DNA of 51,574 nucleotides from Atractiella rhizophila. Its lineage: Eukaryota. The DNA is taken from positions 1 through 51,574 of the forward strand of contig MU271509.1 of assembly GCA_021432655.1 (NCBI GenBank). The letters are read 5' to 3'. Below the pieces are notes generated by a model, which ran no database searches, was not told the origin of the DNA, and saw only the letters and a program-made list of their open reading frames with translations. How positions within the stretch are numbered: the first letter of the stretch is position 1; every line of letters starts with the position of its first letter. A program made the translations under genes and the position numbers. Positions 1 to 9,064 of this stretch are shown here, piece by piece.

Positions 1-735
1 CATCTTTGAGCCCCTTTCCAATGGAGTTATTGATGTTGAACAGTGATGTTGTTGCTAAGTCGTTGAGTAAACATATCTAACGATGAGTTAGCGTCACAGT
101 CAAAGCTGGAGCGCGATCCCTTCCAATCAAGCTTCTTAATGTTCAACCAGGCTCTTTTGTACCCAATTTCCTCGACTGGTACACTGCACGCAAGCAGGAC
201 GACGGCTCCTGCCTCCTCTCTTTTCCTGCAGAACCACACGCCAAGTTCACCATCATCGACATTCGAGAAGATTACGGCAAATACGTTGCAGCCGCATTGG
301 AGAAAGACGTTGACACTGTTTACCCTGCTCCAGGTTGGATTACTCCTGTAGATATGGCGAGGGATTTTGAGAAATGTAGGTGTCTTTCCTTGCGTGCAAC
401 CTCTACTGAAAATGCCGACTGCAGTTTCGGGAAGAAAATTTACGTTCCAGAAGATGCACAGTATTGCTGGGGGTACCGGCAACGCAGCTGTAGCAAAGGA
501 TGTTGTTGCTATTCACCGTGCGATCAGGGAGATAGGATGTGAGTACCCTCCTGCATTCCTCTTTAGACATTGAACACCTAAAGCAGATCTTGGCAGGAAA
601 GGCGTTGGGTTAGCAACACATTACTTTCCACTCCAGCAAGGAGATTTGCGCAGAGTCTTGGGGGCAATAAAGCAGCTGTTGACAAGATCTTCGCTTGAAC
701 GGACACATCACTGTAAATTTATCGGTCCTGGTTAA
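1..735 (+). CDS. NmrA-like NAD(P)-binding protein, 3' part (starts upstream of window, spliced)
   Basis: Spliced translation VTVKAGARSLPIKLLNVQPGSFVPNFLDW...FTIIDIREDYGKYVAAALE...TPVDMARDFEK/SGRKFTFQ resembles the C-terminal half of the NmrA family. GT-AG introns present. Exact last exon uncertain. Confidence 0.6.
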
Positions 736-1091
736 TTCAATCGACTTTCTACGTTCACATTGCCGCGCAGCTCTCATCCTTCCCCGTCTTCCCGCAACAT
801 CCTGCGTTGTGTCTGGCACGGGCTCCTCTTCAGCGCTAGCTTCAGCTTTCATGAGCTTTCGCTGAGCCAACTCCTTGTTGCTGCGCCGCGTCAAAAGCTG
901 CGAGCTCCTGTTCCGCAGTTTGCCGCAGCGACAGCACTCTGCTTGCGCGCGTCTCAAGGGTGAAATCCACTGGAGACTGGTATAGCTTATGGCATGAGAA
1001 TAGGATGGCCTTACGTGTACAAATCGATGATTTGTGAGCCATGAGCCCACGGGCTGGGCTGCGGAAAGAGGGTTCGAGGCGGAGGACGAGG

Positions 1092-1100
1092 TATAAAAGC
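1092..1100 (+). promoter_or_regulatory. TATA box of the SDR gene
   Basis: GTATAAAAG about 90 nt upstream of the ATG at 1191. Confidence 0.45.
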
Positions 1101-1190
1101 CCAGTCATCCAGGCACGTTTCTTCTTCCTCGTCAACAAAACTCACCAGCCTCACGCTTCTCTTGCTCCAGACATATCAAAAGCGTCCAAT

Positions 1191-1951
1191 ATGATTACTC
1201 TCGCGGGATCTAAGATCGTCATCATCGGCGGAACGAGTGGCATAGGGTTCGCGGTATGTCATCGCCTTCCCGAAAAGCTCAAGCATGACAAGGAGTGACA
1301 AAACTGTCACGGAAAGGTCGCAGTGTCGTCCATCCAATCCCTCGCTTCTCATGTAATCGTCGCGTCCTCGAACCCGGAACGCGTTGCAAACGCCGTGACT
1401 CGCGGCGAGAGCGCGATCAAAGCGTCTGACCTCACGCACGAGTACAAGTTGGAAGGCAAGACGCTGGACATCTCCAATCTGGAGCAGATCACAAAATTCT
1501 TTGAAGAGGTAGGAGAGATCGACCACTTGATCATCACTGCGAGGTATAGGAACATTATGCCTGATATGGACACTTTGAAAGGTTCGCTGTTCCTCTCCCT
1601 AGCCAAGTTGATCATTGATGAATGTATGTACAGCTGGAATGGATACCCGTTACTGGGGACCCATGCATGCAGCTCAGATTGCAAAAGTGAAGCCTTTAGG
1701 CTCTGTGACCTTCACGACCTGTGGGTGCCACGTCCCTCCAAAACCTTTATGTAATAACACAAAATCCAGCGTCCGTGGTCTACAGACCCTCTACTTGTGA
1801 GCTATGCCTACCTCCTAATCAATGCATAACGCTCAAGTTGGCGATAGTCATCGGCATATCTGTCGGATTTGGAGGAGCGATTGAAGCATCTATGAGAGGT
1901 TTGGCACAGAGCAAAGGGCCCGTCAGATATAACGTAATCGCTCCAGGAGGC
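1191..1951 (+). CDS. Short-chain dehydrogenase/reductase, 5' exons (3' exons are in the mirrored block)
   Basis: MITLAGSKIVIIGGTSGIGFA (GxxxGxG), DHLIITA, RGLAQSKGPVRYNVIAPGG, then donor GTAAGT at 1952 with no continuation on either true strand. Confidence 0.85.
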
Positions 1952-1996
1952 GTAAGTTTCTTCCCCCTTCCTTCCAGCAAATCATTAAAATCATCT

Positions 1997-2240
1997 TAAG
2001 AAAGGGAAGGATGTTCGTCGTGTACGGGATGACGGGGAGAAGCGGCAGAAGCAAAGCGGGAAAAGCAAGAAGAGAGGTCATGGTAAGGGCGGCGAGCACG
2101 ATGGGAGGCACGAGGGTGAGGGCAAGGGTAAGAAGCGTCGTCGTCGCTACTCACGTACTAGGCAGGGTCCGCCAAGCTGACGGACCACGCTGACGGACCA
2201 CACTGTGGCTTCCGAGACTGCGTCCACCTATTTAGAAGTA
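1997..2240. CDS. Zn2Cys6 TF first coding exon, mirrored (ATG at 2240 reading leftwards)
   Basis: MKIYPPASEPSVSHQAVEPPGTDHALIAAAAKNGNG...KTAKRGSRACAACRKGKN once one copy of a 13-bp tandem duplication is removed. Mirrored TATAAAAG at 2415-2408. Confidence 0.85.
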
Positions 2241-3760
2241 GAAGACGAAGGAATTTTATTATTTTATAACAGTCGTATATGAATCTAATGCGCGTGCTTA
2301 GCAATAGAGCTGAGGTTTTATTAGACAGACCTACTCACCCGTCCAGCTCCGACGACCGACCTCTTTCCCGGCTTCTCGGTTTTCGCCAGGCGTACGGTGG
2401 CAGACGGGAAAATATAGACGAGTTTTGGCTTTTGAATGCGAGTTGTACTCCCCGGGGCGAAGGGCGTCGGAAAAGCGGCTGTTGCTCTGCTGCTGCACGT
2501 AGTCTGGAACCTTCTCCACGAAGTACCCGTGAGGGCCTGAACCAGTCCTATCAGAACAGTGAGAGTTACCGCAACCAAGTGCCCCACCTCTTCGACGCGA
2601 TACGTAACATTATAAGCTTTGTCCCTTCCTCCCCTACCTACCCCTACAGCCCTATAAACTAACCGCTAATCGCTTATCTTTTCCCAGTCAGGAAGGAGGT
2701 TCGTACACAGGCAGTTAGCTACCTAACGCTAGTCACCCTACCGCGCTCACCACGGTGAGAAGTGTGTACGTCTTTCCTTAGTGAGACACTGCGCAAACTC
2801 GGAGGGCGAAGGTAGAGAGAAGGTAAAGAAGGGAAACATGGCACCGTTATGTTACAAGGAGTGCGGTAAACGGGTTTCAACTGTAAAGAACAAAGTTTCA
2901 CCTCGAACAGAGGGTAAGGTGCAGTTCTTTCTATAAGGCTTAGTGCTGCATCTTTCTACTCCAAACACACCGCGAACGGATGGGAGCCCTTCGAGCTTAA
3001 CGGTGGACTTTTGGTAGCTGCAGCGTCAGCTTCGAGTTTCAACATACATGACTCGCCCAAACCTTGTTCGTACAGACGTCATTCGCCCAGCTCTTTTAGA
3101 GTCGAGCGGTAGACCGGCTCCTGTGGACCAGGTTAGACGTAGATCGGGACTAACAACTCACGTCGACGAGACTTATGTGAAGAGGCAGAGGGCAGCTCGA
3201 TCCGCAGGCGAGCTGAGCGAACGTTTACCACAGCACTAGGGCCGCGAGTCCTAACACAGAGTAGCAGAGAAAGTACGGCTACGGCACTCCACCTGGTAGC
3301 GAAGTTCTCGAAGTTGGTAGTGGGTCGCACGGCCGCGAGCTTGAACTACGGACTTCGATTCGAACTTCGGGAAGTCTGAACTGGAACTTCTGTCAGAACT
3401 ATCAGTACTTAGTTTGACCGACTCTTCTACAAGCGCTGGAAACTCATAGTGTCATGAAAATGCGCCTTCTTGTAATACCTATACTCACTTCTCAGATCAA
3501 ACGAGACCAGACTCGAGCGTCGAAAACTCGAATTGACAGTAGTGAGTAGACTGACTGAACATGTTACGTGGAATTTTTGTCAGAGACTCGTAAAGCATAC
3601 ATTGCAGATTAAAGCTCCGTACCAATCCGGACGGTACTTCAAACAACCTAGCAGAAGTATAAAACTAGCTCTTATATATTCTGCCTACGAAGTAAAGTTG
3701 GTTTAAGTAGGGTCTTGCAAGATAAGGGGTAACAAAACAGAAACAGAAGGTGCTGGATTA

Positions 3761-4127
3761 AATTCGAACTTCCAGTTGAGGTGGCAGCTAGGAGTTCTGG
3801 ACACTAGCGCGTCTGTCTCGTGTAGTTATGAGAAAAGAAAGTATACGGGACCTTCTTTCTGGTTGGACAGGTCAATACATAACCGTGAAGTACTGTTTCT
3901 CCATCCGAAGGCGGCGGACTAGCGGGTATCTACTCGCAAGAGAGTTCCTAGGGCCTCTCGTCCTTTCGATTGGAGAAGCCCTCACCGTTGTACGAACTGC
4001 CCGTTGAACCGGAGACAGAGGAACTAGTAAACGAGATAGTAGAGGAAGCCCTTTAGAAGTCAGTAGACCGAAAGAGAAGTTAACCTTCCAGTAGCAGCCT
4101 GTAACAACCTGCTTGGAGACACTCGTG
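3761..4127. CDS. SDR 3' exons, mirrored (read 4127 to 3761 without complementing)
   Basis: Four exons: VLTE / MTEDFPKEMIEQMIKETEAKLPVKHVATPEE / AAEAYLFVMKCQYITGQ / VLRIDGGVDLQA*. This is a typical SDR C-terminus and is in phase with the donor at 1952. Confidence 0.9.
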
Positions 4128-4135
4128 GACATAAA

Positions 4136-4412
4136 NNNNNNNNNNNNNNNNNNNNNNNNNNNNNNNNNNNNNNNNNNNNNNNNNNNNNNNNNNNNNNNNN
4201 NNNNNNNNNNNNNNNNNNNNNNNNNNNNNNNNNNNNNNNNNNNNNNNNNNNNNNNNNNNNNNNNNNNNNNNNNNNNNNNNNNNNNNNNNNNNNNNNNNNN
4301 NNNNNNNNNNNNNNNNNNNNNNNNNNNNNNNNNNNNNNNNNNNNNNNNNNNNNNNNNNNNNNNNNNNNNNNNNNNNNNNNNNNNNNNNNNNNNNNNNNNN
4401 NNNNNNNNNNNN
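4136..4412. other. Assembly gap (277 N)
   Basis: Run of N. Confidence 1.
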
Positions 4413-4574
4413 CTCCTGTTGCGATTATAATCTTCCTCCGTCGCCTTCCGATGGTGATCATCTTCCGCCATCGTTTTCTCTTGCCCCGCCGCGCTTATAA
4501 TCTCCTCACGCAATACCCGACACTGTTGTGTTCTTGTGCTGTTACGGACTTGGCTGATCAAAGTTTGAATGCAG

Positions 4575-7500
4575 CTGCGAAGGATGGGAGAACCCTCCGT
4601 GAGTGAACCCGCCATTGGATGCGTAGCAAAAGCTCATGATTGTCACACTGCTTCCGATATAAAGCTGCAAGCGTTGCCGCACCACTTCCACCACCTGTTA
4701 CTTCGAGAAGCCAGCCAAAGAACCGTCCTCGTTCGACGTCGCTTCACTCGAACGCATCTCCTCACTCGAGAACCAGATGACTCGCATGTCCTCCTCCCTC
4801 TCCGAACTCATCTCCATCTTCCGTCCTTCCCCTCCTCACCTNNNNNNNNNNNNNNNNNNNNNNNNNTCCAACCCCCAGCAACATCAACAGCAGCCACATC
4901 ATCCGCAACAGCAACAACCTCAGATGTTACCCCAGCCTCCACCAGAAATGGCTTCGTACGAACCTTACGCCCCTTTCCCCCTGCCTTCCGTACGCAATTC
5001 CCTCCCTCCATACGCCGAGGATCGCAGCCGTCTCTCCGGCGGGGGGTCAACGTGAACGGATTAGGCATCGGAGGGATGGGACTAGGATTGGGGATCGGGG
5101 TCCCTCAACAACACGCCCATCCTCATGGTCACAGGTCACGGTGGACACCCTCAATGGTCTCCAGTGCCAGTGACGTCTGTTCCCACTCCCTTCCCTCCCT
5201 GGCTCTTCCTCCCTTCCTCCGCTCCCTCTTCCAGTCCAAAATTCGGTCCCGACCTCCATTCCTCCTTCTGCCTCCTATGCCATCCTACCACCTCCCAACA
5301 GCTCCGCCGTCCCGCAAGCGGCGAGCATACCCCCTCCCGCTCCTCCTTCTTCCTCCGGCGGTACAAGGAAGGGCAGGAAGAGGAGTGCCTCTCAGACTGG
5401 CAGCGGGAACGGGCAGCCTGCAGCACCACAGAAGAGGGCGAGGATAGCGGGAGAGGAGGATGGAGTGGCAGAGCCGACGGATGCAGCGGAGGGGAATAGG
5501 TTTCCTCGGTTGCCCAAGTATGCCAGTCCTAATCATGGTGCGTGGCTTTATTCTCGTTCGCCATCTGGAAGAAGCGGAAATAATTACTGATTTTGGCGAT
5601 GACTATGCATAGCTTTGGCTCACTACGGATTGACCGCTCCTCCATCCCCCACCCTCTCGTGAGTCTCCCTCGTCCTAACTATTTCCCACAAGAAAGAGGC
5701 TGAAAGGCACTCAGTGACTCAGATCTACCCTCTTCCACGCTCACCGCTCCATTCGAAGCGCTAGCCACAGCGGCTGCAACTGCAGCCGAAGCCGAGGAGG
5801 TAGCATCAGCAGAATGCTCTCCAACAGACGCGCGAGATCGAAGGGAGAGGAGGAAGGGAAAGGAGGGTGGGACGAAGGAGGGTGGAGGGAGTAGGACGAG
5901 GAGGACGGGGAGGAGGAGGGTCCCTCCGCCCCCGAATGCGTTTCCGGACGTCGTGCAGAAAGGAATGGTGGCTGAGGCGGAAGCGAGGGAATTGTTCGAG
6001 TTGTGAGTGTCTCCCAATCTGCCATTCTTCACTTCTGGCCTCGCATCGGCGACGGTCTTCCTCTACGCGTGTAGTAGTGATGGCTGATGCAATGCTGGAA
6101 CAGCTATATGGCTTACTGCCATGCTTTCATTCCCCTCCTCGATCCTACCTACGACACCTATGCCGAATTCAAGGGACGCACCCAGTTCTGTTTCGACGCA
6201 GTCCTTAGCGTCGCCGCCAGGGTTAAATACACGCAAGGGAGTACGTGCCACATTCTATCCAGCGTTTATAAGAGGGAGAGAGAACTGATGGATGGAACAG
6301 CTACGAGCTTGGAAGTCCTCAGGGCGACGAGCGAAGAGGCGCACGGCATAGCGAGGAGCACACTCTTTGCAGCCACAGTCAGGATCGAGGCTGTACAGGC
6401 TGGTTTGTCGTCCTTTCTACTACCGGTGGAGGAAGAAATTTGCTGATTGTTTACATGGCTGCATGTAGTCACCATCCTCGCTGCGTGGAGTGACAAGGGA
6501 TACCTTGCTAGTGGACTCGCCTCTAGGATGGCCCTCGAGATGGTTCGTTTCTTCGGCTCCATATATTCATTCATGATATCGACGTTTTGTGAATTCAGGG
6601 CTTGAATCGGGCTCTTGAGAAGCTGGAAGACGGATCGAAAGAGCGTACGGAGGCAGAAGGACGAGATCTAGTCGTCAGTGCGAGGACTTGGTTGAGTGTT
6701 TACTACCTCGACTACGTGTTCGTACCCTCGCCTTCTTCAATGTTAGGACGATCTAAATGATGACGGGTGCACTCCAGCATGTCTGTAGGAAATGGTCGCC
6801 CAGTCCTTCTCTCCCCCACCCACATTCCGACCCGTGCCTTCCTTAGCTCTCCGTATGCGACAAAGACAGACATCAAGCTCGTGGCCGATATCGAGCTCTT
6901 GTCTCACAAGAGTAGGATAGGCGAGTCGATCGCGAGCTTTGGAGGGGCGGTGGATGAAAGGACACTCGGGTTTGTGAGGAGGGCTAGGGGAGATTTGGAG
7001 GGCTGGTTCGCGAGTTGGGATGGAGAGCTTTGTTCGTCTTTTCCTCCTTCACCATTCTCTGAGAACTATACTCATACTTATGTTCGCTTAGCGAAACACT
7101 TTGCGGACGACAGCTTTGAGAGATTGAGCTTGAAGTTTAATTTACATCAGGCTATCATCTACCTTTGCTGTACTGGTCCGTCGAGTTTCTTTTCTACCCA
7201 GTTAAGTCGGTGTTAAGTTGGAAATTGGTACAGCATTGCAAGGAAGAGGGACTTCAATTGATTCTCCACATCCCATCGAAGTCCGAGAACTCGCCCTTGA
7301 AGCAAGACTGTCCGCCCTCCAATCCCTTCACATCCTCCTCCACACTCCCTACCGTTCCTTCCTCAAGTACGGCACGCACAACACATTCGTGGAAAGTGCC
7401 TTCTCCGCCCTCTTTCTTCTCAAGATGTCCAAGCTCTTCCCAGATGGTACTGACGTGGACCTCGCGCGAGAAGTGCGAGAGGTGGACTTGTTGGCCGAGG

Positions 7501-7976
7501 AACTGAAAGCTTGTCCTGGTGCTCAGCGGTTCGCTTGGACGCTCAAGATCGCCACAAGGAGGTGGAAGGAGGAGATGAACCTCGCCTCCTCTTCCTTCCT
7601 CATCAACGATCCGTCACCCCTGCCCCCTCCCACGACTTCTCAATATCAAGCGATCGACTGGCAGCAGCATCAACAGCAACAAGGACAACAACAGGGGCAA
7701 GCTGCTGAAAGTCCAACTGACAGTTTAGAGATCTACAACCTGCTCTCGTCCATCCTTGGACAGGACAATGGGGCGACATCCGCCAACGGAACTAACTCGA
7801 ACGGAATATACAATCCCACGCAGATGCAATCTCTGCCTGGATGGATGACGCAGCAGGACACGGCTTTCGATTTCGGAGATCTCGCGTTCCCGGCGATGGG
7901 TCTCGATAGCATGTTCCTCCCCAGTTGGTTTGGGGCCCAATGGGTGGCAGGAGAGGAAGAAGGTCAGGCTTGGTAG
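4575..7976 (+). CDS. Zn(II)2Cys6 transcription factor with fungal-specific TF domain (remainder of gene, many introns)
   Basis: Second half of the binuclear cluster CEGWENPP/CKRCRTTSTTCYF, coiled coil LERISSLENQM, Q/P-rich region, NAFPDVVQKGMVAEAEARELFE/YMAYCHAFIPLLDPTYDT middle homology region, acidic C-terminus. Contains a 25-N gap at 4842-4866. Confidence 0.88.
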
Positions 7977-9064
7977 CTTCGGCGTCATCTGGTTAGTTTC
8001 GTATAGTCTTCTTGGATTTGAACCTTTCGCATTTGTGGAATGATTCGATGCTTCCTTCTTTGGTATCATTGGTGCTTTGATTTGGGTCAAAATGTAAATT
8101 ACATGCTGAAACCATAGTCTGAGCCTTGAAAGGGGATTCGGGTTGTCCTATACCACAAAAGCTGATCTTACTCTGATGGCGATCAGCTCGTGGTTCGAAT
8201 GCCAGAGTCACGTGGCAACTAGACCTCTTCGCTTTATTTCCACTTTCTACCAACGCTATTAAACCTAGTATAGAAGGTCCAGTTCGCGGCTTATATCCAA
8301 GGCAGATCATCAGCGTCCAAAGTAAGCCCAAACGCGTTACCTTAGCTCAGGTTACAGTAAGCTTTACTCTTGGTGTGGGTGGAGAGTCGCAGATATGAAC
8401 AAGTTGCTCCCCTTTTGGCGTTCGTTATTTCTGAGCAGGCTGCCTGTGCCAATCCGGCACATCCTAACGTAGCATCAAACTTTATACTGTTCGGACGCTT
8501 TGTTGATATGGACTGACCTCCAAAGGTGAAATGGCATTCAATACGGTAATTGTGTTGTGAACATAAGGACAAGTGAATAACGTCCGAGACCTACATGTGC
8601 GATTCCAATCACCTTATCGCAGGACGTTCTTTTCTTGTTAATGATAATGTTACTCGCCTCTTCGTGCGGTCAAGCACACGGGCATAATAAGCCTTCTAAA
8701 TAGCCGTCGCGCCTGCTTTCACTTCCTGCTGGTGCCTTCTCGCCTTGGTGAAATTGTGAACCCCTTTCCCGCAAGTTCATTTTGACAAATAATGTACTCA
8801 CTGTGGCTAATCGGAGCAGGACCATTGTCCAAAACGACTGTTGTTCAAGTTTACGGCGATCGTTGGAATGAATCGCATTCGTGTCAGCTCTTTCATGATG
8901 TTGGACTGTCAGTCTAATCACCGTTATAGGAAGAGTATCAGCGATTACTCTATGCCATTAGATACTCCAAACATTTCGCTCTATCCACATATATCCGTCT
9001 CAAACACACGTATAAAAACGAGAAGCACTGTTTCTGGGAACATTTCTGGTATCTCTTCTGGCCG

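Follow-up and report, generated by a model that had tools for sequence, protein, structure and literature searches.

The window analysed here is the entire 51,574-base scaffold of Atractiella rhizophila. It carries a gene for an SDR-like dehydrogenase and a gene for a Zn2Cys6 transcription factor (TF), and a mirror-written block that adjoins the left side of a 277-N gap holds parts of both. "Mirrored" denotes here letters read in reversed order without complementation. The features of the region are collected in Table 1, in which X1 to X4 are four public runs found by run search, whose assembled contigs (Logan) were aligned on positions 1-8000.

Table 1. Features in and around the mirror-written block ("down to" marks stretches read in reversed letter order)
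Feature	Positions	Strand	Evidence or remark
SDR exons 1-5, correctly written	1191-1252, 1316-1579, 1632-1720, 1770-1796, 1848-1951	+	GT..AG joints in X3, X4
Block with letter order reversed without complementation	1998..4135 (2138 nt)	.	contigs, k-mer score, tblastn
SDR exon 6, 12-nt micro-exon	4127 down to 4116	uncomplemented	X3/X4 join to exons 5 and 7; exon model
SDR exon 7, 93 nt	4065 down to 3973	.	tblastn HSPs at mirrored positions 62-169; exon model
SDR exon 8, 51 nt	3916 down to 3866	.	tblastn HSPs at mirrored positions 214-270; exon model; alignment
SDR exon 9 with stop, 39 nt	3799 down to 3761	.	codes VLRIDGGVDLQA and stop; exon model
Mirrored interior, SDR stop to TF zinc-cluster exon	3760 down to 2237	.	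k-mer score negative throughout
TF exon open stretch, cysteines 1-2	2236 down to 1998	.	X4 joint to 4574; six-cysteine pattern; P0003 alignment
277-N gap	4136..4412	.	real sequence missing, including TF exon end and donor site
N runs	4136-4412 (277 N), 4842-4866 (25 N)		only two in scaffold
TF exon, third cysteine (..RCEGWENPP)	4574-4598	+	acceptor 4573/4574; joint 4598->4665; translation
TF exon, cysteines 4-6 (CKRCRTTSTTC)	4665-5536	+	split by surplus 25-N run and three indels

As the preliminary description of this DNA had noted, the SDR gene as written halts at a donor site, with exon 5 ending at 1951 and a GT at 1952-1953. The missing acceptor was proposed to lie in the mirrored block, and there AAATACAG (4135 down to 4128) closes a 54-nt intron, followed by the four predicted in-phase exons (exons 6 to 9 in Table 1), which end in VLRIDGGVDLQA and a stop codon and are separated by introns of 50, 56 and 66 nt, all GT..AG. 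The corrected gene comprises nine exons and 741 nt and encodes a protein of 246 aa without an internal stop. Residues 1-244 of this protein align with residues 1-253 of the homologue P0005 at an E-value of 1.9e-65, compared with 2.8e-32 for the deposited 143-aa model, and the protein has the conserved C-terminal motifs of the family, including the xDGG motif, with which exon 9 aligns. For exon 8, the tblastn HSPs reach 94% identity over 16 aa, and the first 20 letters of exon 7 are present in a loose end of X4 (20/20; 19/20 in X3). The 12-nt micro-exon codes for VLTE, equivalent to the conserved "V.TE" of the homologues, and is confirmed by two spliced contigs.

The corrected protein carries the glycine-rich dinucleotide-binding motif GGTSGIG at residue 13, aligned with GGxSGIG of the homologues. 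The deposited model scores 42.5 bits against PF23441 (cut-off 27) and 26.0 bits against PF00106, just under the cut-off of 26.6; the full-length homologues P0005, P0010 and P0012 reach 96-116 bits on PF23441. The classical catalytic Y-x3-K was not found in the corrected protein and, within residues 120-190, occurs in only 2 of the 44 full-length homologues. Judged by its sequence, the protein is a member of an atypical SDR-like clade (PF23441) and not a classical SDR, given that the motif is missing from it and from 42 of the 44 homologues.

The TF gene mirrors this situation at the other end of the block. As written from 4574, the first 30 residues of the TF include four cysteines and do not match the six-cysteine pattern, in agreement with what had been noticed earlier. 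The first two cysteines had been placed in the mirrored block, and indeed KRGSRACAACRKGK, read from 2041, completes the cluster to C-x2-C-x6-C-x7-C-x2-C-x6-C. The joined peptide was assembled from 2236 down to 1998, the letters CC from X4, 4574-4598, and 4665 onward; according to the X4 contig, the zinc-cluster exon runs these two letters past 1998, into the gap. Only once the block is mirrored does the TF satisfy the Zn2Cys6 test pattern C-x2-C-x6-C-x5-12-C-x2-C-x6-8-C. Aligned with residues 24-128 of P0003, a Zn2Cys6 protein of Botryobasidium, the joined peptide yields an E-value of 4e-20, compared with 1.4e-11 without the block. P0003 has both PF00172 and PF04082.

No in-frame start codon is present in the mirrored open stretch of the TF (239 nt), and 54 combinations of an ATG with GT..AG introns are possible for the start, so that the TF model is incomplete even after correction. 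Farther upstream in the mirrored reading, the word TATAAAAG occurs at 2415 down to 2408, as a putative TATA box; a 5'UTR intron, also proposed in the preliminary description, is likewise putative. The TF intron around the 277-N gap measures at least 161 nt (4413-4573) plus about 122-210 contig letters, much more than the introns of 49-101 nt at the other 15 joints.

The prediction that both genes would be mis-annotated is borne out by the public records. The SDR gene is represented in NCBI by P0001, "NAD(P)-binding protein, partial [Atractiella rhizophila]", of 143 aa. The TF model, P0002, is a "hypothetical protein" of 780 aa that starts at 4948, lacks the zinc cluster and matches PF04082 only (29.4 bits, cut-off 23), with no PF00172. 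P0001 ends in ..SSVVY at about 1783, inside exon 4 and approximately 170 nt short of the final donor that is correctly written; thus, the mirrored block alone does not explain the shortening of this model.

The orientation of the block was assessed with three lines of evidence: contigs from the public runs, homology and k-mer composition. The contigs of X1 and X2 are unspliced, whereas those of X3 and X4 lack 15 GT..AG introns of the flanking sequence and thus come from spliced RNA. One contig of X1 (1079 letters) and one of X2 (1133 letters) follow the scaffold up to 1999 and then continue into overhangs of 85 and 42 letters, respectively, that are unlike the scaffold as written. A by-eye comparison showed that the 30-letter consensus of these overhangs is identical to the mirrored 4133 down to 4104 (30/30 letters). 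X3 and X4 depart from the scaffold at 1953 and proceed to the mirrored 4125-4116, joined to 4065-4046 (30/30 letters in X4, 29/30 in X3). At the far end, a spliced X4 contig runs through the mirrored 2024 down to 1998 (27/27), then CC, and then continues at the acceptor, 4574. Sequence from other data sets thus links each end of the block to its true neighbour. At the left junction, the contigs of X1 and X2 (30/30) show the mirrored order immediately after 1997.

These contigs also fix the extent of the block. The earlier claim of a reversal without complementation at 1997-4135 holds as to the mirroring, on the evidence of contigs, k-mers and tblastn, but its start was set one base early, the first mirrored letter being 1998. 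Letters 1998-1999 and 4135-4134 are both AA, so that the true join is that of T1997 to A4135 and the block comprises 1998-4135. The contigs show ..CTT ahead of the mirrored AAATACAG, and past the mirrored end the spliced contig has C, not T; therefore, T1997 is part of the left flank. The two peptides quoted previously were recovered from 3799 (VLRIDGGVDLQA) and 2041 (KRGSRACAACRKGK) in one frame of the uncomplemented reading from 4135 down to 1997. The left edge of the block has no Ns, and on its right side the block borders directly on the gap that remains. The true layout is 1-1997, 4135 down to 1998, the sequence missing in the 277-N gap (starting with CC), and 4413 onward.

In X1 and X2, about 1% of the letters depart from the scaffold (8/994 and 20/1846), and these runs may represent another haplotype or strain and not the source reads of this assembly. 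Indels at part of the depth only were seen at 939-942, 4429, 4474 and 5591; together with the differences of about 1%, they suggest a second haplotype or strain in X1 and X2. Read depth is zero in the eight bins covering 2137-4272 in all four runs, with the flanks covered; this zero cover was not counted as evidence. Shares of the 432 sampled words of 1-4135 (0.38 in X1 and 0.34 in X2) were likewise not used as evidence, being compatible with presence of the first 1999 bases alone, and the same sampled-word search had no RNA run among the holders listed.

For the homology analysis, P0001 was compared with 1.84 billion representatives, which gave 763 relatives at E<=0.001, the best 150 of which were listed. 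From a set of 152 proteins, P0001-P0003 were set apart, and of the other 149 the 105 outside 225-300 aa were removed, leaving 44 full-length-like SDR homologues, and the TF relative P0003 was added for a set of 45 tblastn queries (threshold E<1e-3). An earlier protein search with 113 candidates had recovered only this scaffold's own protein. None of the 45 queries matched the block as written, reverse complement included, at E<1e-3, whereas 14 of the 45 matched the mirrored block. All HSPs in the mirrored block are on the plus strand and collinear with the C-termini of the homologues (residues about 175-249), and residues 47-60 of P0003 match the mirrored far end. A true inversion written correctly is ruled out by this result, that is, by no match on either written strand and 14 on the mirrored block. 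The same lack of matches bears out the earlier claim that the hidden exons cannot be seen by a six-frame search.

Real DNA is strand-symmetric, in that a k-mer and its reverse complement have similar frequencies, but it is not mirror-symmetric. A strand-symmetric Markov model was trained on the scaffold outside the block, and 500-bp tiles were scored as written versus mirrored. At k=4, all four tiles inside the block were negative (-4.0, -21.1, -11.7 and -14.0), and none of the 97 tiles outside it was (mean +10.3, minimum +0.5). At k=5 and k=6, 1 and 5 of the 97 outer tiles, respectively, became negative, with the inner tiles still negative. In a sliding 300-bp score, the negative run was unbroken for window starts from 1901 to 4101; elsewhere in 1-8000, all values were positive except for one zero (5601-5900). 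The unbroken run implies that the block, together with its non-coding interior, is a single mirrored piece. Elsewhere in the scaffold, the score of the 500-bp tiles revealed no second mirrored piece of at least 500 bp.

Reads and homology speak for mirroring at the two ends of the block, and the k-mer score for mirroring of its interior (about 3760 down to 2237). Mirrored, the interior (2237-3760) probably consists of intergenic DNA and the 5' region of the TF gene. A third gene within the block was considered and rejected: the longest mirrored ORFs of the interior, of 157, 155 and 144 aa, fall in the range of 300 shuffles (mean 121, 95th percentile 164; 9% reach at least 155 aa), and their translations look non-coding. 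The block as written contains ORFs of up to 130 aa; the earlier statement that the defect creates spurious ORFs holds in this mechanical sense only.

To the right of the block, the scaffold has further defects. Contigs extend leftwards past 4413 by a median of 122-210 letters that do not match the scaffold. The 25-N run at 4842-4866 is almost wholly surplus, since contigs of X1, X2 and X3 cross it, omitting 24 letters. There are also surplus letters in the scaffold, two at 5041, one at 5133/5134 and one at 5182/5185, partly in runs of G or C. They are absent from every covering contig of X1-X3 (and of X4 at 5133/5185) and shift the frame in the big TF exon, which accounts for the frame hops of P0002; this model bridges the surplus letters by invented introns and frame hops. 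The 25-N run and the three frame-shifting indels in 4842-5185 fit an automated low-quality patch.

Taken together, 1998-4135 is, with high confidence, genuine DNA of the organism that the record gives with its letters reversed but not complemented. Both strands of DNA are polar (5'->3'), and a reverse complement is what any physical rearrangement produces. It follows that inversion, recombination and transposition cannot give a mirror string, the source of which has to be software or hand editing. The mirrored block is thus an artefact and not biology, and it is almost certainly a software error beside the gap. This agrees with the explanation offered in the preliminary description, as the contigs carry the mirrored order and either written strand is without homology (0/45).

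The error probably arose during gap extension or patching, when a piece from the opposite strand was merely complemented, or one from the same strand merely reversed, before being appended; the two operations produce the identical string. From the left edge without Ns and the right edge at the remaining gap, we infer that the contig end at 1997 was lengthened by 2138 nt into the gap by such a strand-mishandling step. Given the form of the left edge, extension of a contig into the gap would be a better fit than misplacement of a whole contig. In consequence of the error, the last four SDR exons and the first zinc-cluster exon of the TF cannot be seen in any six-frame search.

Among the alternatives, one combines biology with an error: the isolate would have a true 2.1-kb inversion, and the record would show the inverted segment complemented but not reversed. 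The written string is indeed the complement of a truly inverted segment, such that the string alone cannot tell the two cases apart, and X1 and X2, being about 1% off the scaffold, may come from another isolate. This explanation, however, requires a rearrangement in addition to a software error, and the inversion would have to break two genes exactly at intron positions. Moreover, all four runs, including the spliced contigs, show the uninverted order, and both genes are perfectly restored by mirroring in place. We consider it very improbable. It is scarcely credible, too, that the public record is correct and that the mirroring came about only later, say in a derived copy or through a test insert placed on purpose: the public protein models are truncated or N-terminally shortened, as expected from gene callers working on defective sequence, and a nine-exon SDR gene with clean GT..AG introns would be easy to call on a correct one. 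That the block as written is genuine, such as an unknown or foreign insertion, with the mirrored matches a coincidence, can be practically dismissed, as no supporting point was found, the mirrored order is matched exactly at the junctions, over 30, 30 and 27 letters, which is beyond chance, the k-mer orientation is unlike that of all 97 other tiles, and neither written strand gives a protein match.

The recording error favoured here resembles an ordinary misoriented contig, or false inversion, in that a piece adjoining an N gap faces the wrong way with respect to its flanks and the genes at its edges are split. An ordinary misorientation, however, is a reverse complement, still found by six-frame search and read mapping, whereas this block corresponds to neither strand; its left edge, unlike that of an ordinary misoriented contig, has no Ns. 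Database entries submitted reversed only or complemented only exist, and these are whole short entries. They share with the present block the same string operation, that is, omission of one step of reverse-complementing, but here 2.1 kb in the interior of an annotated genome scaffold are affected. Natural mirror repeats are short, low-complexity, H-DNA-forming homopurine/homopyrimidine tracts, symmetric about their own centre. The likeness lies in reading alike both ways without complementation; the block, in contrast, consists of 2138 nt of complex, gene-bearing sequence that is not symmetric but is the mirrored copy of a forward-only sequence. Among the papers listed for non-complemented reversal, no title or abstract mentions an assembly error of this kind. 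No paper describing the Atractiella genome was found in the literature search, and a passage in PMC13347111, a study that used Atractiella genome data, calls them unpublished.

A strand-handling bug of the pipeline might have left other gap-adjacent blocks of this assembly, and possibly of sibling assemblies built with that pipeline at about the same time, mirror-written as well, although we regard this as rather unlikely. If such a bug were systematic, no six-frame search or read mapper would find the exons concerned. The strand-symmetric k-mer score, which separated the block cleanly from the rest of this 51.6-kb scaffold, could serve as a cheap assembly-wide check.

The consequences are chiefly a matter of data curation, and their value is modest. 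Two public models are in error, in that the dehydrogenase is cut short and the zinc-cluster regulator, lacking its DNA-binding domain, is presented as a hypothetical protein, and 2.1 kb of the scaffold are like nothing in nature and can mislead screens for orphan sequences or "novel DNA". For the organism itself, the biological interest is low: with the block in its proper order, both the Zn2Cys6 TF and the SDR-like dehydrogenase are ordinary genes, and the biology is not new.
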